A stretch of DNA of 32,000 bases from Synechococcus elongatus PCC 6301 (lineage in GTDB: Bacteria > Cyanobacteriota > Cyanobacteriia > Synechococcales > Synechococcaceae), in NCBI RefSeq assembly GCF_000010065.1, contig NC_006576.1, positions 2,400,001 to 2,432,000 of the forward strand, read 5' to 3'. This document shows positions 6,826-30,574 of this stretch, piece after piece (position 1 is the stretch's first letter; each line of letters opens with the position of its first letter). The position numbers and the translations under genes are program-made. Under the pieces are notes generated by a model. That model ran no database searches. It had not been told where the DNA came from and saw only the letters and a program-made list of their open reading frames with translations.

Positions 6826-6967
6826 AGAACAGGGATTCAAACAGCCTCGCGGCTTGTTCTTACTGGTTCAGCGACTGCACTTACAGAAGTGGGTTGCCCT
6901 ACTTCGGCAGAGGTGCTTATCTCCCCAGTCGTTTGCTCTTGCGACCCGGTTTCGGCATGCCCTGCCG
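6785..6967 (-). ncRNA. predicted omega-RNA (reRNA) scaffold overlapping the tnpB 3' end, plus about 20 nt of flank-derived guide
   Basis: Minus-strand RNA structure seen by eye: a long-range pair of CGGCAG (about 6967-6962) with CUGCCG (about 6909-6904). A hairpin GAAGUAGGG-CAA-CCCACUUC lies at 6905..6886. AGCC-GCGA-GGCU (GNRA loop) lies at 6854..6843. The terminal hairpin CCCUGUUC-UUUA-GGACGGGG uses U-G pairs that form only on this strand. Guide candidate is GAGGTTTTGTCGCCACTGTG (6804..6785). The 5' extent is a guess. Confidence 0.45.
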
Positions 6968-8105
6968 TACCGTTGTTCCATTCCGCGCCGACGACTTCTA
7001 ACCCTCGCTTGAGGATATTGAGCGCGGCATTTTGGTCGCGGCAAATCGTTAAGCCGCAGTGTGGGCAGTCATGGGTTCTGGTCGAGAGTGACTTCTGCAC
7101 CCGATAACCGCAACCAGAGCAGTCTTGGCTGGTGTAGGCCGGATTAACCGCGACGACGACTTTTCTCCAAAGTTTGCCGTAGTAGCCCAGCCAGTGGGTG
7201 AACTGCGTCCAGCCTGCATCGTGGATGGATTTTGCTAAGTGTCGGCTGCGAACTAAGTTAGGCACCCGCAAATCTTCATAGACCACGATGTCGTTAGACA
7301 CCATTACGCGCCGTGCTTGTTCAATAGCCCAGCTTTTACGTTGGCGCTGAATTTTGAGGTGGACTTTGCCCATTCGCTGACGTTGCTTGTGGTAGTTCTT
7401 GCTCTGAGGCTTCGCTCCTTTCTTGAACCGCTTGGATAGCCGCCGTTGGGCCCGTCTGAGCCGCTTTTCTCCCTTGCGGAAAAACTTGGGACAAGCAACC
7501 TCAGCGCCATTAGAGTCCTTGGTGAAATACTTCAGCCCCAAGTCCAAGCCAATGACGTTGCCGCTGTAGACTCCAGCTTCCTGTCGTTCTACGTCCAAAC
7601 AGAACTGAGCGTAGTACCCATCAGCACGGCGCACCACCCGAACGCGGTTGATTTTGGATGACAGAATTAACTGCCGAGCAGAACCGTCCAACCACAGCTC
7701 CAACTGACCCGCCTTAAAACCGTCGGTGAACGTGATCGACATCCCATCATCCGAGAGTTTCCAGCCCGACGTTTTGTACTCCACTGAGCGGGAATGCTTT
7801 TTGAACTTGGGATAGCCCTTGTGTTTCGCGCCCTCCTTGCAACGGCGATAAAAAGACTGAATCGACTGCCAAGTCCGTTCCGCGGCTGCTTGTCGAGCCT
7901 GCGAATTCAGCAAGCCCATCCAAGGCTGCTCAGCATCTTTAGCTAAGACAGCACAGAACTTTTGCAAGTCGTTTTTGCTAACCCCAGCGTTGTCTCGCCA
8001 GTAGCGAAGACAGCGGTTGTGGACACACTGAGCCGTGCGGATTGCTGCATCGAGTTGGGCAAACTGCTCAGGGGTTCCAGCTAACTTGGCTTCACGGATT
8101 AACAT
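6837..8105 (-). CDS. tnpB: TnpB (IS605 OrfB family, RuvC-like RNA-guided endonuclease)
   Basis: 422 aa. The N-terminal pattern is LAGTPEQFAQLDAAIRTAQCVHNRCL. RuvC triad candidates are GLDLG (D), VVYEDL (E) and CRDQNAALNI (D). The zinc ribbon reads CSGCG...CPHCG. The low-complexity tail (GTAGHAETGSQEQTTGEISTSAEVG..) is typical of an ORF overlapping an RNA-coding end. Confidence 0.9.
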   Translation of the reverse strand: MLIREAKLAGTPEQFAQLDAAIRTAQCVHNRCLRYWRDNAGVSKNDLQKFCAVLAKDAEQPWMGLLNSQARQAAAERTWQSIQSFYRRCKEGAKHKGYPKFKKHSRSVEYKTSGWKLSDDGMSITFTDGFKAGQLELWLDGSARQLILSSKINRVRVVRRADGYYAQFCLDVERQEAGVYSGNVIGLDLGLKYFTKDSNGAEVACPKFFRKGEKRLRRAQRRLSKRFKKGAKPQSKNYHKQRQRMGKVHLKIQRQRKSWAIEQARRVMVSNDIVVYEDLRVPNLVRSRHLAKSIHDAGWTQFTHWLGYYGKLWRKVVVAVNPAYTSQDCSGCGYRVQKSLSTRTHDCPHCGLTICRDQNAALNILKRGLEVVGAEWNNGTAGHAETGSQEQTTGEISTSAEVGQPTSVSAVAEPVRTSREAV

Positions 8106-13392: not shown

Positions 13393-14025
13393 TTACCAAT
13401 CGCTCCAATCATCGCGCGCGGCAGGCTCGGCGGGCGTTGCCAACAGTTTTGCAGCGATCGCCCCTCCTACAAAGCCAAAAAGGTGGCCTTCCCAGGAGAC
13501 GCCATCTTGCAGCGGCAGCACGCCCCAAATCAAGCTGCCGTAGAGGAAGAAAGCAACAACCGCAAAAATCAGCGTCGGGAGACTACGGTCAAACAAACTA
13601 GAGCTGAGCAGAAAGCCAAAGAAGCCAAATACTAGGCCACTCGCCCCAACATGAACTGATCGGGCCGATCCAAAGAGCCAAACCCCCAAGCCACTGACCA
13701 GCAGCGTGATTCCCAACGTCACCCAAAAGTCGCGCAGACTGCGGAGGATGATCAGCCCACCTAAAACCAGGAACGGTACGGTGTTCGCAAGCAGGTGGGC
13801 CAAGTTGAGGTGGAGGAAGGGCGCAAACAAAATGCCCCAAAGTCCGCCGAGATTGCGCGGGCGAATGCCGTAGAAGACCAAGCGATTGCTGAACAGCAGA
13901 CTGTTGACTAGGGCGATCGCCCACATTGTTCCCAACAGGATTCCGAGGGACTGTACGCCTGCACCCCACTGCACCAGCGCGGTGCGTTTGGGCGGTTGGG
14001 GATCGAGAGGAGCCGTCATCGTCAA
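13393..14025 (-). CDS. rhomboid-family intramembrane serine protease
   Basis: Polytopic membrane protein with GASGLVFGFFG (GxSG catalytic Ser) and a later WEGHLFGFVGGAIA (catalytic His in an HxxGxxxG helix). Confidence 0.8.
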   Translation of the reverse strand: MTMTAPLDPQPPKRTALVQWGAGVQSLGILLGTMWAIALVNSLLFSNRLVFYGIRPRNLGGLWGILFAPFLHLNLAHLLANTVPFLVLGGLIILRSLRDFWVTLGITLLVSGLGVWLFGSARSVHVGASGLVFGFFGFLLSSSLFDRSLPTLIFAVVAFFLYGSLIWGVLPLQDGVSWEGHLFGFVGGAIAAKLLATPAEPAARDDWSDW

Positions 14026-14061: not shown

Positions 14062-14520
14062 TTACCAGCCGTGCAGTTTGCGTTTGAGTTGATCGAGTTC
14101 CTGGCGTAGCAGCGTGACTTCTTCGCGTAGAGTGGTCTGGCCGAGAACCAAATCCAGCCGCTGGGCGATCGCTTCTTGCAGCAGATCCGCTTCCGATAAA
14201 CCTTGATCCTGAGCCTGTTGCTGGAGTTGCTGTTGCCAACTGCGGGGGCAGGCCGTGCCCAACCAGACGCGATCGCTACCGTTCCCTTGCCGGAGCCGTT
14301 GCAAAAGGCGTTGCTGTAAGTCCGGATCGAGCAGCACTAAATCTAAGGCCGCCTCGATCACATCGCCAGCATGGACGGCGTAGCGATCGCAAAAGGTTTC
14401 AAACTCGCGGGGCAGGAGTTGCAGCGGGCGATCGCTCAGTTCGGGGCCGGTCGTGAGGCTTCCTTCCCGTGCGATGGGCGTTCGCGATCGCTTTTTGAGG
14501 CGGTCAAAGGCGTCAGTCAT
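14062..14520 (-). CDS. mcdB: McdB-like carboxysome-positioning adaptor (152 aa)
   Basis: Its start overlaps the stop of the upstream ParA-like gene (TGATG). It has a basic, disordered N-terminus (MTDAFDRLKKRSRTPIAREGS..) and a Q-rich predicted coiled coil (WQQQLQQQAQDQ...LLRQELDQLKRKL). The C-terminus is ..KLHGW. There is no HTH or ParB fold. This matches the published McdB hallmarks and the 152-aa size I recall for S. elongatus McdB. Confidence 0.7.
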   Translation of the reverse strand: MTDAFDRLKKRSRTPIAREGSLTTGPELSDRPLQLLPREFETFCDRYAVHAGDVIEAALDLVLLDPDLQQRLLQRLRQGNGSDRVWLGTACPRSWQQQLQQQAQDQGLSEADLLQEAIAQRLDLVLGQTTLREEVTLLRQELDQLKRKLHGW

Positions 14521-15284
14521 CAGCAGCCCAGCTTTTCAAGGATCGTCCGGAAAGGATACTCCAGATCGGCATACCCCAGCGCTGCCAAACTCACGCCTTG
14601 GTCGATCGCCTTTTTAAATTGCTCCGATTCCAAAATTGAGGGCAAGATCGGATGGCCTGCGGCAACTTCCTGCATCGATTCCAAACTTTTCTGGCTCTGC
14701 TTGGCTTGGGTACGACCCAACCAGCGATCGCGGAAGGGCAAAATCCCCAGAATCTGTCCCTGAAAGGCTTCCACCTCGCTCATTTCCGCCACGAGGTCGA
14801 GGGTGCGCAAGAGTGAGTTCAGTCCTTTGGAAGAAGCCTCAGCGGGGATCAAGAGCTGATCGGCCGCGCCCACACTGGTCATGCAGAGCTGCGATCGCTG
14901 GGGCGGCGCATCGATCACGCAAAAGTCAAATTGATCCTGCAAAGGACTCAACCGCCGCCGCAAAACAATCGCCCCCATCCCACTTGTCGCTAAAAAATCT
15001 TGGGCGCTATCTAAAGCATCATCAGCGGGGATCAGGGCGAGGCGATCGTCCAAGTTCCACAAACTATCAACGACATCAACTTCTTTTTTGAGCACTTCCA
15101 GTAAGGTAGCTTGCTCAGAACTCAGCTCACAGCCTAGATAAAAACTCAAGCTGGATTGCGGATCAGCATCGATCATCAACACGCGCTTACCCCGCGCCGC
15201 CAGCGATCGCCCGAGGAAAAGTGCCGTGGTGGTTTTTCCTTGTCCGCCTGAGAGCGACGCGCATGTGACCGTCAGCATCGACAA
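14520..15284 (-). CDS. mcdA: McdA-like ParA/MinD-family ATPase (carboxysome positioning)
   Basis: The deviant Walker A reads SGGQGKTT (15251..15231), with Ser where classical ParA has the signature Lys (KGGxxGKT). ParA-fold motifs present include MIDADPQ and DFCVIDAPP. GGGAGG sits 6 nt upstream of the ATG. Confidence 0.8.
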   Translation of the reverse strand: MSMLTVTCASLSGGQGKTTTALFLGRSLAARGKRVLMIDADPQSSLSFYLGCELSSEQATLLEVLKKEVDVVDSLWNLDDRLALIPADDALDSAQDFLATSGMGAIVLRRRLSPLQDQFDFCVIDAPPQRSQLCMTSVGAADQLLIPAEASSKGLNSLLRTLDLVAEMSEVEAFQGQILGILPFRDRWLGRTQAKQSQKSLESMQEVAAGHPILPSILESEQFKKAIDQGVSLAALGYADLEYPFRTILEKLGC

Positions 15285-15304
15285 CCTCCCAAAGCGAAGA
15301 CGAA

Positions 15305-15310
15305 ATTATA
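15305..15310 (-). promoter_or_regulatory. candidate -10 box for mcdA
   Basis: Perfect TATAAT on the minus strand (plus-strand attata, 15305-15310), about 20 nt upstream of the mcdA ATG. No convincing -35 element. Confidence 0.3.
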
Positions 15311-17227: not shown

Positions 17228-17339
17228 GGGTATGAAGAAACCGCTGCGGCCCAAAAGTTCTTGCGGCGCTCTGGAAAAGCATCACTTAGAATGAGGTTAG
17301 CGGAGACAAATGTTTCCGTTCACTCCTCACACCACACTT

Positions 17340-17366
17340 CGCCCGGGCAACGCTCGGGCGTTTTTT
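17340..17366 (+). terminator. rho-independent terminator in the IMPDH-family/trxA spacer
   Basis: CGCCCGGG (17340-17347), loop CAACG, CTCGGGCG (17353-17360, one G-U pair), then TTTTTT (17361-17366). It lies 146 nt after the upstream stop and 134 nt before trxA. Confidence 0.75.
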
Positions 17367-25160: not shown

Positions 25161-25262
25161 CCTTGGGGTTGGTGTTTTGGCACAATCGTTAAGACATAGG
25201 ATTGCGATCGTTGCTTTCACCCTGTGGCGGTGAGGTGATCAATCGGGGTGAGAGGATTAGGG

Positions 25263-25628
25263 ATGACTAAAATCTTGTTGGTAGAAGACAACGAAGACAA
25301 TTGGGATATGTTGTCGCGCCGTCTGACTCGCAAGGGTTTTGAAGTGGTCTTGGCTCACGATGGAGCTGCCGGTGTGGATACGGCACGGCGCGAGCAACCG
25401 GATCTGATTTTGATGGATATGAGCTTGCCAGTGATGGATGGCTGGGAGGCCACGCGCCAACTCAAAGCCGATCCTGAACTGCAACAGACGCCGGTGATTG
25501 CACTGACTGCCCACGCCATGGCTAGCGATCGCGAAAAGGCGATCGCCGCGGGCTGTGACGACTACGACACCAAGCCAATCGAGCTACCGCGCCTGCTCAG
25601 TAAAATTGCTCAGTTGCTCGAACGCTAG
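25263..25628 (+). CDS. single-domain response regulator (CheY-like receiver)
   Basis: ILLVEDNEDN, LILMDMSLPVMDG (phospho-acceptor Asp), ALTAHA and DYDTKP (conserved Lys). ATG 25263 is preferred over GTG 25248. Confidence 0.9.
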   Translation: MTKILLVEDNEDNWDMLSRRLTRKGFEVVLAHDGAAGVDTARREQPDLILMDMSLPVMDGWEATRQLKADPELQQTPVIALTAHAMASDREKAIAAGCDDYDTKPIELPRLLSKIAQLLER

Positions 25629-25673
25629 AGCCACCGTCGCGAGCCTTGGTTGCCCCCCTAACCCTCGACTGCC

Positions 25674-28607
25674 ATGAAGCTGCGCCGCCAATTCCTGTTG
25701 TTTGGAGTGGGGACAACCTTTACAGCGATCGCTGCGATCTCCTTATCGGATGTCATTACCAATACCCGACTGAGTGAGTCCAGTCGTGAGGAGGTGCAAT
25801 CCCTGCTGCAGCGTGAGCAAGAGAGCATCCTGTCGCGAACGTACACCGTGGTTCGGGTGCAGGGCACCTCGATCGAAAAGCAACTCAGTCGACAGATCCA
25901 GGTTCTCGATGAAGCCCTCCAACGAGCCGGCGGCCTCAGGACTGGCTCTCGCCTAGTGCGCTGGCAAGCTAAGAATCAATACACAGGCGCCATACAGCCT
26001 GTTGAGTTGCCGGAACTTCAGTTGGGTGGCCGCTGGCTCGATCAGGTTAGTCGCTTTGATCAGGCAGTGCCAGTGATTGACACAGTGTCTCGGCAAATGG
26101 GCGGCACTGTCACGATCTTCCAGCGGATCAACGATCGCGGTGACATGCTACGGGTCGCAACCACCGTCCCTAATCAGGATAAGCAGCGGGCGATCGGCAC
26201 CTACATCCCTGTGACCAATCCCAGTGGCGATCCCAACCCTGTGATTGCAGCAGTTTTGAAAGGTCAGACCTATCGCGGGCCAGCCTACATTGTCAATGAT
26301 TGGTACATCGCCATCTATCAGCCGCTCAAAGATGCTCAGGGGCGGGTTATCGGGATGATCTATGCCGGTCAACGTCAGGATCAAACCGGTGAACTAGCGC
26401 GCTCTTTTCAGGATTTGCGCTTTGGTCAAACCGGATCAGCTTTTGTTTTCCTGGGGCAGGGCAGCCAACGGGGCGAGACCATTCTGACCAGTGACCCATC
26501 GCTCCAGAAAAAAAACTTTTGGGATGCCAAAGACGCCTCAGGGCAGTTTTTTCTGCGAACTTCGATCGCAGATGCCATCCGCCAACCGGGTGCTTTTATT
26601 CGCGTTCGCTACTTGGCTCGCCCTTGGACGGAGGGGCTGCAATCGACGCAACCGGCTCGCCAAGAACAGATGCTACTGGTCTATTACCGCCCTTGGAACT
26701 GGGTTATTGGCATTCGCCAGGATAAGCAGGAATTTGCGGAACCCTTCCGCCGCCTAGAGGCTATTCAGCAGCGATCGCTCTACATTCAGTTACTGCTCGG
26801 TGTCATCATTGCGGTGCTCGGCGCAATCGCCGCCCGCGGTTGGGCTGCCCACTTAGGAATGCGCATTGAGCAGTTAGCCCATGCTGCCGATGCCATGGCC
26901 AGCGGCCAGCTCCAGCAACAAATTCCCACCAGTGGTCGCGATGAACTCACTGTGCTGGCCCAAGCCTTCAACCGGATGGCGGTTACACTGCGGGAGTTGC
27001 TGGTCAGTTTGGAGCATCGCGTCCAAGAACGTACGGCGGCTCTCCGAGAAACTAACGATCGCCTCGAACAGGCCCGTGAGCAGGCCGAAGCTGCAAACCA
27101 GGCTAAGAGTGCATTTCTAGCCAACATGAGCCACGAGTTGCGCACTCCCCTCAATGCCATCATTGGCTACAGCGAAATGATGATGGAAGAGGCAGAAGAC
27201 GGCATCGAGGTCGAAGAACTCCTGCCCGACTTCCGCAAGATCAACAATGCAGGCAAACACTTGCTGGAGCTGATCAACAGCATTCTGGACCTCTCCAAAA
27301 TTGAAGCGGGTCGCATGGAGCTTTACTTAGAAAGCTTCTCGCTGCCCGAGCTGATCAATGGTGTGAAATCGATTATCAAGCCCTTAATTGAAAAAAATCA
27401 GAATCAGCTGTTGGTGGACTGCCCAGCCGATATAGGGCTGATGACTGCTGATGTCACGAAGCTGCGGCAAACCTTGCTCAACCTTCTGTCTAATGCCAGC
27501 AAATTTACTCACCAAGGCACGATTCAGCTGCAGGTTGCTGCCCAGGGGGATCAGGTGGTCTTCAAGGTGGTTGATAGTGGCATTGGTATGTCACCGGAGC
27601 AGATCGATCGCATTTTTGAGGCGTTTGCCCAGGCAGATGATTCCACGACACGGAAATTCGGAGGCACAGGTCTTGGGCTTTCGATTAGCCGCCATTTCAT
27701 AGAAATGATGGGAGGCAAAATTACGGTTGAGAGCGTTCTCGGGGAAGGCAGTACGTTCACCATTACCCTGCCGCGCCAAGTGCAACCGCCGCAGTCGATC
27801 CCTGCGGTTGATCCAGTCCTGACTGATGAGGCGATCGCAACGGCCACTGAACAGGAAGATCAAAACCAGCCTGTGGTCCTCGTTGTGGATGATGAACCTA
27901 GTGCCCGCGAGTTGTTGCGCCGCATGCTGGAAAAGGAAGGCTATCGCGTCGTTACGGCAGCAGGGGGAGCTGAAGGGTTGCAGCGAGCGCAGGAACTGCG
28001 CCCTGCCCTGATCACCCTCGATTTGATGATGCCCCAGGTGGATGGTTGGTCAGTGCTAACCGCTCTCAAAGCCGATCCAATGCTGGCGGAGATTCCAGTG
28101 GTGATGGTGAGCATGGTGGAAGGGCGATCGCTCTCCTATGCCCTCGGTGCAGCTGGCTACCTCCACAAACCAATTGATCGCGACCAGTTGCGGCGGATCC
28201 TGGAGGGCTATACCCACCCCGATCGCCAGCCGCTGGCACTGGTTATTGAAGACGACCCAGTCAACCGATCGCTGCTGCGGCAATTGCTCGAGCGGGATGG
28301 CTGGCAGGTCGCAGAAGCCAACCAAGGGCAACAAGGCCTAGCTGTTTTGGAGTCGCTGGAGCAGCCGCCCGACCTGATCTTGCTGGATTTGATGATGCCC
28401 CAGATGGATGGCTTTGCCTTCGTCGACGCGCTGCGAGCTAACGGTAACTGGCAAACACTGCCGGTGATTGTGGTGACGGCTAAAGATCTGACGGAACAGG
28501 ATCGTCAGCGCCTGCAAGGGCGGGTCAGCCAGGTGATTGCCAAGGGGAATTTGGCGATCGATCGACTCCTGGCGGAAATTCGCCAAGTGGGGGCCAACCG
28601 TGTCTGA
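25674..28607 (+). CDS. hybrid sensor histidine kinase: TM, Cache-like periplasmic domain, TM, HAMP, HisKA, HATPase, REC, REC
   Basis: Two TM helices flank a sensor domain of about 330 aa. HAMP is present ([17 protein letters not shown]), as are the H-box [18 protein letters not shown] and the ATPase boxes ([27 protein letters not shown]). Two receivers follow ([13 protein letters not shown] and [13 protein letters not shown]). Confidence 0.9.
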
Positions 28608-29835
28608 GTCGCTTGAATCCTTAGCCAGGCTCGCTCACTGGCGCCATGAACTACGGACTCCCATCAACGCCATTTTGGGCTACAGCCAACTGCTGCTGGA
28701 GGATTGGGCAGGCACCGCGATTGCTACAGACCTAGAGCGGATCGAATCAGCTGGGCAGGAGTTACTGCGGCTCGTCAATGAAATTTTGGATCCTCACAGC
28801 AGCGATCGCGGTCTAAGCCTCGACACCTACCAGGCCCGTCTGCGCTACGCCCTGCGGACGCCGGTCAACACTGTTTGCGGTTATGTCGAGCTGCTGCTCG
28901 AGGAAGACTCGCCCGAACTGGCCGAGAGCCGAGTTGACTTAGAGCGGATTAGCGCAGCGGGCGAGCGTTTGCTAGAACAACTCGAGGCCATGGCAGCTTG
29001 GGATCAGCCGGCGAGCCAAGCTTCGGCTGTGGCGCTGTCAGAGATGGAGGTGGAGGTTGCCGAATCGGTGCTCCGCTATCGCCAAGCAGCGGTGTCAGCG
29101 TCGGCAGTCACGGGCGGTCGACTGTTGGTTGCCGAGGACAACGAGATCAACCGTGATGTCTTGGAGCGTCGTCTGCGTCGTCTTGGGCATGACGTCGTCT
29201 GTGTTGCTTCGGGGCAAGAAGCTCTGAATCAATTAGCGCAACAGCCCTTCGATTTGCTGTTCCTCGATCTGATGATGCCGGGACTGACCGGTTTTGAGGT
29301 GCTGCAGCAGCTCAAGGCAGATCCCACCTTAGCTGAGCTGCCTGTGCTGATGATTTCGGCGCTGGATGACCTTGAGAGTGTGATTCGCTGTCTGCGCTTG
29401 GGTGCGACTGACTATCTGACCAAACCGTTTGAACCAACGCTGTTACAAACGCGTTTGGAGACTTGCCTCCAGCACAAACGTCTGCGCGATCGCGAGTTGG
29501 ACTACTTGCGTAATGTTGCGATTGTCACGGATGCGGCGGTGGCCGTGGAGGCGGGTGACTACGATCGCGATCGCCTCCAGACGGTGGCAGAGCGCAGCGA
29601 CGCACTGGGGCAGTTGGCACGCATGTTTCGCCAGATGACCCGCTCGGTAGAACAGCGAGAAACCCAGCTCAAGCAGACAATTCGGCGTTTAGAGCTGCAG
29701 ATCGACACCGCTACCGTCAAAAGCCAAGTCAAGGAGATCACGGAGTCGGATTATTTCCGTGACCTTGAGAGCCGTGCCCGCCAAATTCGCCGCGATCGCA
29801 GCTATCGTTCTTCGCCCCCTGACCGCCATGCCTAA
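28600..29835 (+). CDS. response regulator with two N-terminal DHp (HisKA-like) modules, no ATPase domain, and a C-terminal HAMP-like/coiled-coil module
   Basis: GTG 28600 overlaps the kinase stop by 8 nt. H-box 1 is [22 protein letters not shown] (His codon 28645-28647). H-box 2 is [23 protein letters not shown], with Tyr (28846-28848) in the His position. The receiver reads [11 protein letters not shown]...[13 protein letters not shown]...YLTKPF. No N/G1/G2 ATP-binding boxes were seen. Confidence 0.8.
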
Positions 29836-30574
29836 TCCCAACGCCTTGGCGGAACTGCAAGCACTGGAGCTGTTACAAACTTGTACCCCGGCTGAACTAG
29901 CAGATCTGGCCCATTGCCTGCAACCCCAGACACTCCAAGCGCAAGAAGCTCTATTCCACTGTGGCGATCCAGCAGCAGCGCTCTACTGGATTCGCTCAGG
30001 ACGGGTGGGCGTTTTTGTCGCCGATGGTAGCAACAACCAGCATGAGTCGTTGCTGCGCGTGCTGGGGGCCGGTGCTCTGCTGGGAGAGATGGCCCTGATC
30101 GATGGGCAACCACGATCGGCGACTTGTCGGGCCTTGGAACCGACGCAACTTTACGCGGTCACTAGCCAAGATTTTCAGCAGTTGCTAACGCGATCGCCCC
30201 AGTTTGTGCAGGCCTTGTTGGCAACCCTGAGCCAGCGGTTGCGCTATACCAATCAGTTCCTGAGTGAAGTGGGGGCGGGCGTGCAGCAGTTGGCAAGCGG
30301 CCAGTATGCCCCCCTAGCGCAACTGCAAAGTCCAGATCACTCCCTTGAACATCTGGCAACGGCTTTTGCCCAGATGGCTCTGAGGGCGCAGCAGCGGGAA
30401 GTGGCTCTGCAGGAACGGATTCGGCGTTTGGAATTAGAAGTCGATGCTTGTCGCCTCCAACAGTCTGTGGCAGAAATCACCGAGTCAGAGTTCTTCGTGC
30501 ATCTCCAACAGCGGGCGCAGCAAATTCGGCGCAATCGCCACAAATCCTTGCCGCCCCAAGCCGATTCTGAATAA
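29828..30574 (+). CDS. cyclic-nucleotide-binding domain protein with a C-terminal HAMP-like/coiled-coil module
   Basis: ATG 29828 overlaps the upstream stop by 8 nt (ATGCCTAA). The cNMP-binding signature LLGEMALIDGQPRSATCRA is present. The C-terminal 49 aa align without gaps to the tail of the preceding protein. Confidence 0.8.
   Translation: MPNPNALAELQALELLQTCTPAELADLAHCLQPQTLQAQEALFHCGDPAAALYWIRSGRVGVFVADGSNNQHESLLRVLGAGALLGEMALIDGQPRSATCRALEPTQLYAVTSQDFQQLLTRSPQFVQALLATLSQRLRYTNQFLSEVGAGVQQLASGQYAPLAQLQSPDHSLEHLATAFAQMALRAQQREVALQERIRRLELEVDACRLQQSVAEITESEFFVHLQQRAQQIRRNRHKSLPPQADSE

Follow-up and report, generated by a model that had tools for sequence, protein, structure and literature searches.

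The question raised by this locus is whether a ParA-type ATPase and the small protein encoded directly after it segregate DNA or position some other cargo. Both open reading frames lie on the minus strand of the window (the whole 32-kb stretch of DNA analysed here), and sources still name their products 'ParA family protein' and 'hypothetical protein', which is precisely the mis-annotation that the first-pass annotation had warned of when it proposed an McdA/McdB-type pair. That proposal is borne out by our results. The two proteins are exact matches to ABB57863.1/ABB57864.1, as well as to BAD80451.1/BAD80450.1 and AJD57654.1/AJD57653.1, their UniRef names are McdA and McdB, and they are identical to the proteins on which McdA and McdB were defined. 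A 63-nt exact DNA search of the genome contig collection gave no match, and in a protein-guided contig scan the top match was 72% identical, with S. elongatus absent from the best 80 of 293 McdA-like loci. Because the source locus is seemingly absent from that collection, or masked in it, identity was set by the exact protein look-up together with a DNA comparison, in which an assembly (locus L084) carrying these exact proteins matched 20,460 bp (~20.5 kb) of the window at 99.93% identity. The 32-kb window also holds 82 copies of HIP1. We regard it as almost beyond doubt that positions 14062-15278 (minus strand) are the mcdA-mcdB operon of S. elongatus, the founding type-1 'maintenance of carboxysome distribution' system, for which the gene names Synpcc7942_1833 and Synpcc7942_1834 are used (MacCready 2018, eLife, PMC6328274). 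The pair is a system already known since 2018, and the main finding is not new. Compared with McdAB of S. elongatus PCC 7942 (PMC6328274), the proteins are identical, the neighbours are the same and there is no difference; PCC 7942, PCC 6301 and UTEX 2973 are near-identical and are not distinguished here. The type-1 hallmarks (MacCready 2020, PMC7182216) that were compared were all found in the pair, and the assays that the first-pass annotation had proposed (deletion, two-hybrid, ATPase stimulation and DNA binding) have all been published for exactly these genes (including PMC6328274). There is essentially no counter-evidence on the identity or function of the pair, beyond minor points.

The mcdA gene (14520-15278, minus strand) encodes 252 aa, with its stop codon at 14520-14522, and its product is a deviant Walker ATPase of the ParA/MinD fold (Pfam AAA_31, 5e-34; CbiA, 1.5e-17). 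A comparison with characterised McdA had been suggested and was informative: the solved McdA 6NOO is the best structure match of the ATPase (E=3e-86), and 6NOO, 6NON and 6NOP all match it over the full length at E ~1e-86. The Walker A motif or P-loop, S10-G-G-Q-G-K15-T-T (15228-15251, minus strand), is present as it had been read, SGGQGKTT with serine at the ParA/MinD signature lysine position; Ser10 stands where the Soj/ParA and MinD signature KGGxxGK[ST] has its lysine, and K15 is the catalytic lysine. Both S10 and K15 have been mutated, and K151A and S10K/K151S swap mutants have been made (Hakim 2021). K151 (codon at 14826-14828, minus strand) is the relocated 'McdA signature lysine', which reaches the ATP of the other subunit and whose structural role has been described (Schumacher 2019, PMC6582323). 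In our alignment it is invariant among 21 McdA-like proteins, as are F117, C120 and D123, and it aligns to the lysine of the SSKG/STKG motif in 6NOO. The other hallmarks of McdA, read from the sequence, are D39, F46-Y47 and a Walker B motif, FDFCVID, at residue 117. Even carboxysome spacing requires McdA, and ATP-dependent, non-specific DNA binding has been published for the exact protein (PMC6328274; Hakim 2021).

The ATPase had initially been given as 254 aa, a length that counts from a TTG at 15284 (minus strand). The reading frame stands, but translation almost certainly starts at the ATG at 15278, giving a 252-aa product that begins MLTVTC. Of the two forms, the protein collection contains that of 252 aa and not that of 254 aa, and the in-frame upstream TTG (15282-15284, minus strand), which is probably not a start codon, directly abuts a Shine-Dalgarno sequence, GGGAGG (15285-15290, minus strand), read 6 nt upstream of the ATG. 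A perfect TATAAT hexamer (15305-15310, minus strand), 27 nt upstream of the ATG and within the 143-bp divergent intergenic region between mcdA and a CAAD gene, is a possible -10 element. A consensus promoter scan found no full -35/-10 pair, and around the operon neither promoters nor terminators were predicted above the chance level. The neighbours of the operon are this divergent CAAD gene and, downstream, a rhomboid gene (Synpcc7942_1835 in the literature).

An alternative reading is that the pair is a DNA-partition system, in which the ATPase and its small adaptor segregate a chromosome or plasmid, a function probably served by their closest plasmid-borne relatives in cyanobacteria. Outside the S. 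elongatus clade, both proteins have their nearest relatives in ParA-plus-adaptor pairs, the core of McdB (residues 35-78) is homologous to a plasmid adaptor family, and McdA binds DNA non-specifically (PMC6328274). However, the locus lies on the chromosome in a conserved housekeeping gene order, and neither parS nor a centromere-like repeat lies nearby. The earlier statement that no parS-like site or ParB is close to the pair could be extended to the window at up to 3 mismatches, the ParB GERRxRA box occurs nowhere in the window, and a search for centromere-like repeats near the pair found only copies of HIP1. Furthermore, McdB co-localises with carboxysomes and the dynamics of McdA are disrupted when mcdB is deleted (PMC6328274), and the carboxysome-binding terminal Trp present here is absent in all plasmid-type partners examined. 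We judge a role in DNA partition to be very improbable, and for practical purposes refuted. No carboxysome gene adjoins the pair either, as had been noted, and no BMC or ccm domain was found in the window. This is to be expected, because McdAB lies near carboxysome genes in only ~31% of genomes (MacCready 2020, PMC7182216).

It is scarcely conceivable, and even less credible than a partition function, that the ATPase is a member of some other ParA/MinD branch (Soj, MinD, FlhG/FleN, BcsQ or MipZ) with a different cargo, the small ORF being unrelated to it. Such an assignment could draw on generic Pfam matches (CbiA, BcsQ, VirC1 and MipZ) and on sub-threshold NCBIfam matches to ParA_partition and MinD, but all NCBIfam matches fall far under their cut-offs (78.9 bits against 180 for ParA_partition; 41.1 against 212.9 for bacterial MinD) and none of the NCBIfam ParA, MinD and RepA models reaches cut-off on the ATPase. 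In the PDB search, ParA/Soj/MinD structures other than McdA scored 1e-21 or weaker, with the best Soj/segregation protein at 5e-15 and MinD at ~1e-8; the E-values of the Soj, MinD and FleN structures exceed that of McdA by over 60 orders of magnitude. The ATPase does not have the signature lysine by which those branches are defined, and the small ORF is apparently translationally coupled to the ATPase gene and co-conserved with it, a small ORF also lying immediately downstream of the McdA-like gene in loci L001, L002, L004 and L005.

The partner gene, mcdB (14062-14520, minus strand), encodes 152 aa followed by a stop codon at 14062-14064, and its ORF specifies a type-1 McdB, the carboxysome adaptor. 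Its start overlaps the mcdA stop by one base in TGATG (14518-14522, minus strand), an overlap that had been reported and is present, and which would couple the translation of the two genes. The reported length and terminal KLHGW are also as described, and our Pfam, NCBIfam and PDB searches agree that the partner contains no HTH or ParB domain; none of the Pfam and NCBIfam models run here identifies it. Its description as disordered holds for the N-terminal ~18-34 residues only. McdB 1-18, MTDAFDRLKKRSRTPIAR (14467-14520, minus strand), is a basic, disordered peptide and a highly charged region, with 6 K/R against 2 D/E (net +4). The AF2 pLDDT is below 50 for residues 7-34, and an N-terminal IDR has been demonstrated experimentally in published work, whereas the remainder of the protein is predicted to be helical by AF2 and is helical by CD in the literature. 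Type-1 orthologues all have M1, D3-L8, R11, R13 and R18, R13 and R18 are ~90% conserved among 33 partners, and the N-terminal peptide motif is common to all partners of McdA-like ATPases with Ser or Ala in Walker A.

Beyond this peptide, three further elements can be distinguished. Residues 35-78 (14287-14418, minus strand) form a helical core with homology to the a1-a2-a3 helices of a family of plasmid-type McdB homologues to which the crystal structure 6NOY belongs (hhalign Prob 95.6%, E=1.3e-8 for the core against the family; E=2.5e-35 for the family profile against 6NOY), and it probably adopts the same fold as the core of 6NOY. In the partner alignment, C44 of this core is invariant and E56, A57 and A58 are nearly so. 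Residues 83-131 (14128-14274, minus strand) are an insertion confined to the S. elongatus clade, seen as an alignment gap in the plasmid-type partners, and contain the Gln tract WQQQLQQQAQDQ (95-106), with 9 Q in the 20 residues at 96-115 and 11.8% Q in McdB overall. This tract is not kept in orthologues (Q 4.5-9.7% vs 11.8%), those at ~40% identity having only 3-4 Q per 20 residues, and a Gln-rich centre is not a family-wide feature of McdB. Residues 131-150, LREEVTLLRQELDQLKRKL (14071-14130, minus strand), make up a C-terminal heptad (coiled-coil) helix with L131, V135, L138, L142, L145 and L149 at the a/d positions, and AF2 predicts a single helix across 110-150 (pLDDT ~73-81). The first-pass annotation had described a 'Gln-rich heptad region'; the Gln tract and the heptad helix both exist, but they are two separate elements. 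According to the literature on the domain architecture, the CTD trimerises McdB dimers into a hexamer. The final codon, TGG (14065-14067, minus strand), lies before the TAA stop and encodes W152, which with G151 is invariant in all six of the 90%-identity clusters. Published work shows that W152 is needed for carboxysome association and that deletion of W152 phenocopies deletion of mcdB.

McdB proteins ending in Trp are extremely rare, amounting to six 90%-identity clusters among 5.8 billion. A word-indexed homologue search with McdB retrieved its own cluster only, and an exhaustive HMMER scan added two 50%-identity representatives and no more. On two metagenome contigs mcdB follows mcdA in the same CAAD/IMPDH-like/thioredoxin synteny, with an McdA that is 72% identical and a partner that likewise ends in GW. 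The precomputed Pfam family PF26392 (McdB) is recorded for orthologues and yet has no record for the S. elongatus cluster, so the founding member is highly divergent; in our local Pfam scan PF26392 was left unmatched even by the orthologues P0140 and P0141. McdB resembles a ParA adaptor of the plasmid type (6NOY family) with an insertion of ~50 aa and a terminal Trp added, and at the level of the alignments both gains are shown.

A more specific proposal, which we consider improbable, is that McdB is a chimera, a plasmid-partition adaptor of the 6NOY family, made up of an N-terminal peptide that activates ParA and a helical core, which in the lineage of S. elongatus was turned into an adaptor for an organelle by way of a ribbon-helix-helix (RHH)-like ~50-aa module (83-131) and a C-terminal ...KRKLxGW. 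The basis for an RHH assignment lies in residues 83-127, where NCBIfam gives a sub-threshold RelB-like match (E=0.02) and where PDB 2K9I, which we take to be the RHH/CopG-like ORF56 of pRN1, is the best profile match, albeit below the family threshold (E=0.59 with the single sequence, 0.011 with a profile). The Pfam RHH_1 model is also sub-threshold, at E=0.011 in the orthologue P0141 and 3.6 in the McdB of the window. RHH families do recur in Pfam scans, but a clearly spurious family, Condensation, scores alike (7 members, 1.5e-4). The AF2 model of the McdB monomer is all-helical (pLDDT 66, pTM 0.41) and, at low confidence, makes residues 81-88 a helix rather than a strand; a Foldseek search of the model against the PDB returned nothing below E=2. 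By hhalign the insertion has no similarity to the plasmid-partner core and aligns to McdB's own core with Prob 17.7%. A second RHH-like unit considered at residues 31-66 was rejected: the homologues of that region are the a1-a3 helices in the 6NOY family, and the profile of this family found no RHH match among structures. RHH membership of McdB is a low-probability lead that is not established, and an RHH fold of the insertion, like any contact between McdB and DNA, is speculation.

Type Ib partition systems (ParF/ParG of TP228 and similar) pair a small ParA with an RHH adaptor that carries a flexible basic N-tail. They resemble McdAB in outline: the Walker ATPase is small, the adaptor is small, dimeric and linked to it in translation, and a basic N-tail stimulates the ATPase. 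There is a weak RHH-like signal at McdB 83-127, but the McdAB locus has no centromere repeats and its cargo is a protein organelle, not DNA. The McdA of Cyanothece PCC 7424 (6NOO/6NON/6NOP, PMC6582323) is alike in having Ser in Walker A and Lys151, and aligns over its full length; S. elongatus McdB has the N-terminal peptide and the a1-a2-a3 core in common with the Cyanothece McdB homologue (6NOY). However, the Cyanothece pair is plasmid-borne (PMC6582323) and the pair in the window is chromosomal, the partners of the Cyanothece family are without the ~50-aa insertion (83-131) and the terminal Trp, and a direct comparison of the S. elongatus and Cyanothece McdB sequences is insignificant (E=2.6). 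The cargo of the Cyanothece-type plasmid pair is probably the plasmid itself (PMC7182216). The type-2 McdAB systems of most beta-cyanobacteria follow the same logic of a nucleoid-bound ParA-type ATPase and an adaptor, and their McdB is alike in being a small, charged, Gln-containing coiled-coil adaptor with a Trp within the last four residues (PMC7182216). [quoted passage not shown] The alpha-McdAB system of Halothiobacillus neapolitanus uses the same Brownian-ratchet positioning, and its McdB shares the invariant C-terminal Trp and a basic N-terminal peptide, which there binds McdA, but it is monomeric and fully disordered and serves alpha-carboxysomes, whereas S. elongatus McdB is a helical hexamer (PMC8359340, PMC12139897).

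Published work on these very proteins has largely established how McdAB positions carboxysomes. ATP-bound McdA dimerises as a sandwich and coats the nucleoid by non-specific DNA binding; with Ser10 in place of the Walker A signature lysine, K151 from the C-terminal half contacts the ATP of the partner subunit (PMC6582323; Hakim 2021). McdB is a hexamer (a trimer of dimers) on beta-carboxysomes, where its presence requires both W152 and oligomerisation, and it makes two-hybrid contacts with the shell proteins CcmK2, K3, K4, L and O (PMC6328274). McdA and McdB interact by two-hybrid, McdB stimulates the McdA ATPase, deletion of mcdB collapses McdA dynamics, and carboxysomes do not keep their normal spacing when these ORFs are deleted (PMC6328274). 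By analogy, the basic N-terminal peptide of McdB (1-18) would be the part that contacts McdA and stimulates its ATPase; the N-terminal 20 aa suffice in H. neapolitanus McdB, and direct evidence for the role of the peptide comes only from this unrelated alpha-McdB. Each carboxysome removes the McdA underneath it and is drawn to the McdA that remains, a Brownian ratchet that has been modelled (PMC6328274) and whose outcome is equidistant spacing and equal inheritance of carboxysomes. For a single step in this scheme, a different account is possible, if on balance unlikely: the main mode of attachment might be a multivalent, condensate-like layer of McdB wetting the shell, and not the docking of W152, in fixed stoichiometry, into a shell-protein pocket. 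In the literature, condensate formation in vitro runs in the order W, Y, F and deltaW, and this order tracks carboxysome association and positioning in vivo, and the central domain drives condensates whose solubility is tuned by the charge of the N-terminal IDR. Against this stand the direct two-hybrid contacts with five shell proteins (PMC6328274), the hydrophobic-pocket model, which the published authors left standing, and the Gln tract, an element often invoked for phase separation, which is not conserved in the orthologues found.

The locus is the model system itself and offers no new biology. The result serves instead as a positive control for the genome scan, in that a reader of raw sequence recognised a system that standard annotation mislabels. 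The by-products are modest, namely a rarity census of the W-ending type-1 McdB proteins and a set of domain-level differences from their plasmid relatives. Were the insertion an RHH module for dimerisation or DNA binding, a contact with nucleic acid might persist in McdB, and the published 'central coiled-coil dimerisation domain' would be two distinct modules. Cyanobacteria fix CO2 in carboxysomes, organelles whose spacing and inheritance McdAB controls, and the system is in use for engineering organelle positioning.

The ATPase and its partner in the window are Synpcc7942_1833 and Synpcc7942_1834, the genes that defined McdA and McdB. An exact-sequence look-up returned the 252-aa ATPase as ABB57863.1/BAD80451.1/AJD57654.1 and the 152-aa protein as ABB57864.1/BAD80450.1/AJD57653.1, all from Synechococcus elongatus. 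Contig L084, which encodes exactly this McdB, shares the gene order of the window and is 99.93% identical to positions 4062-24521 (14 mismatches and one gap over 20,460 bp). Together with the exact proteins, this places the window on the S. elongatus chromosome. The locus itself seems to be absent from, or masked in, the genome contigs collection: an exact 63-nt stretch of mcdB found no match there, and no S. elongatus locus was among the best 80 of 293 in a protein-guided scan, where the best match was 72% identical. The first-pass annotation, which had read the pair as McdA/McdB from sequence features, is fully supported.

In a PDB search, the ATPase matched the solved McdA structures 6NOO, 6NON and 6NOP best (E about 1e-86, residues 3-253). 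The next entry behind these stood at 1e-21, the best Soj/segregation protein at about 5e-15 and MinD at about 1e-8. Pfam returned generic AAA_31 and CbiA matches only, and no NCBIfam ParA, RepA or MinD model came near its cut-off. All the type-1 hallmarks that we checked, as given by MacCready 2020 (PMC7182216), are present: a Ser at the signature-lysine position, F46-Y47 where type 2 has Trp-Trp, the Walker B sequence FDFCVID, and a relocated signature lysine, K151, which is invariant in 21 relatives. This lysine contacts ATP across the subunit interface (Schumacher 2019, PMC6582323), and S10, K15 and K151 of exactly this McdA were mutated in Hakim 2021.

Both predicted ORFs were found on the minus strand, mcdB at 14062-14520 and mcdA, in its long form, at 14520-15284. 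The length of 254 aa claimed for the ATPase holds if counted from TTG, but translation almost certainly begins with the ATG at 15278, which gives a 252-aa protein beginning MLTVTC. A Shine-Dalgarno sequence, GGGAGG, lies 6 nt 5′ of this ATG and immediately touches the TTG, and by exact look-up the public protein collection holds the 252-aa form and not the 254-aa one. The other features read from the sequence were recovered: the stop/start overlap TGATG (14518-14522, minus strand), the Walker A motif S10-GGQGK15-TT, a basic McdB N-terminus (net charge +4 over residues 1-18), a Gln-rich stretch with 9 Q per 20 residues at 96-115, a clean a/d heptad (L131, V135, L138, L142, L145, L149) and W152 as the final residue. 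As anticipated, comparisons with Pfam, NCBIfam and the PDB detected neither an HTH nor a ParB domain in McdB, and no parS-like site, ParB box or BMC/ccm gene was found in the 32-kb window.

A rhomboid-family gene (13393-14025, minus strand) lies 36 nt downstream of mcdB and may be co-transcribed with it; this is Synpcc7942_1835 in the literature, and its deletion leaves McdA dynamics unaffected (MacCready 2018, PMC6328274). The 32 kb contain 82 copies of the HIP1 element GCGATCGC, where about 0.5 would be expected, and every direct or inverted repeat found around mcdAB is a copy of it. Elsewhere in the window, a 422-aa IS605-family OrfB/TnpB (6837-8105, minus strand; OrfB_IS605 and Cas12f1-like TNB domains) has inserted between the genes for a DUF362 protein and a Mur ligase, and a plus-strand signalling cluster (25248-30574) encodes a response regulator, a hybrid histidine kinase (977 aa, Cache-HAMP, two receiver domains), a HisKA-receiver protein and a cNMP-binding protein.

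McdB stands almost alone in sequence space. When 5.8 billion clusters were searched by word index, its own cluster was the only match; exhaustive HMMER scanning of 1.84 billion representatives added two more at 41-42% identity, and a profile search brought the GW-ending McdB proteins to six 90%-identity clusters in total. The small ORF is conserved beside the ATPase, as the conservation test of the first-pass annotation asked: two metagenome contigs encode an McdA with 72% identity, the partner comes after mcdA there too, and the thioredoxin, IMPDH-like and CAAD genes on either side agree with the window. Between the IMPDH-like gene and trxA lies the cyanobacterial sRNA Yfr1 (17300-17362, plus strand; Rfam RF01116, 62 bits against a gathering score of 38), in a region about 85% conserved in one of these contigs (L002). 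Invariant among the orthologues are the N-terminal M-[TS]-DAFDRL..R.R, residues C44, A57, W95 and G107, and the C-terminal LR....KRKL.GW. The Gln tract WQQQLQQQAQDQ (residues 95-106; 14203-14238, minus strand), frequently named as a hallmark of McdB, shows no conservation across the five orthologous clusters (about 40% identity), where W95 and G107 alone are invariant around it. Orthologues contain 4.5-9.7% Q and peak at 3-4 per 20 residues, compared with 11.8% and 9 in the window McdB. Precomputed Pfam annotation (clusters P0002 and P0140-P0144, metagenome contigs L001 and L002) assigns PF26392 'McdB' to the orthologues and has no entry for the founding cluster of S. elongatus; with a local Pfam-A copy, PF26392 had no match in P0140 or P0141.

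The scan (one genome per species) gave 293 McdA-like loci, and we parsed 82, comprising 80 genome loci and the two metagenome contigs. Walker A reads S/AGGQGKT in nearly all of these ATPases, and in most cases an ORF of 120-190 aa comes next, starting with McdB's N-terminal peptide. Among them, the four S. elongatus-clade loci alone have the GW ending; the remaining partners, among them those on Nostoc contigs and on three plasmids of Calothrix sp. PCC 7716 (p5, p7 and p3; L046, L048 and L062), lack Trp and finish with ...RKFQTMAKKI or ...KRLITMLSN. A single strain can have several McdA-like pairs on separate plasmids. Loci L006-L083 form a large cyanobacterial McdA-like ATPase family without the signature lysine (SGGQGKT at Walker A, with AGGQGKT in a subset), whose partners have the N-terminal peptide and the core of 6NOY, a crystallised Cyanothece McdB homologue, and no C-terminal Trp. 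The partner-family profile matches 6NOY at E=2.5e-35, and McdB 35-78 is homologous to this plasmid-type core (hhalign Prob 95.6%, E=1.3e-8). In contrast to plasmid-type partners, McdB of the S. elongatus clade carries an extra insertion of ~50 aa (residues 83-131; 14128-14274, minus strand) and the terminal Trp. The comparison fits, and supplies some detail to, the published statements that S. elongatus McdB, set against McdB-like proteins borne on plasmids, shows 'extensions and gaps', and that horizontal transfer may have given rise to type 1 (MacCready 2020, PMC7182216).

Residues 83-127, within this insertion, repeatedly gave sub-threshold matches to ribbon-helix-helix proteins: a RelB-like antitoxin (NCBIfam, E=0.02), Pfam RHH_1 in one orthologue (P0141, E=0.011) and 2K9I, the structure of ORF56 of pRN1, an RHH/CopG-like protein (E=0.59 with the single sequence, 0.011 with the profile of the orthologues, over the full length of the 45-residue domain). 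A spurious family scored about as well in a batch Pfam scan. The AF2 monomer of McdB is all-helical (pLDDT 66, pTM 0.41), with low confidence at 81-90; Foldseek found no match to it below E=2, and hhalign no profile similarity between the insertion and the plasmid-type partner core. We consider a ribbon-helix-helix-like fold here unlikely.

In published work on these very proteins, McdA-ATP associates non-specifically with the nucleoid, McdB sits on carboxysomes in contact with shell proteins and stimulates both the ATPase activity of McdA and the release of McdA from DNA, and carboxysomes deplete McdA locally and climb the resulting gradient as a Brownian ratchet (MacCready 2018, PMC6328274). 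McdB has also been shown to form a hexamer, a trimer of dimers, and to consist of an N-terminal IDR, a dimerising domain in the centre and a C-terminal domain; deletion of W152 abolishes carboxysome association and phenocopies ΔmcdB. The element contacting McdA is probably the N-terminal peptide, because it is the sole segment common to all partners of this ATPase family and because, in H. neapolitanus McdB, the corresponding 20 residues are both required and enough for binding to McdA. The pair is the already characterised model system, and every experiment that the first-pass annotation proposed has been done on these genes.
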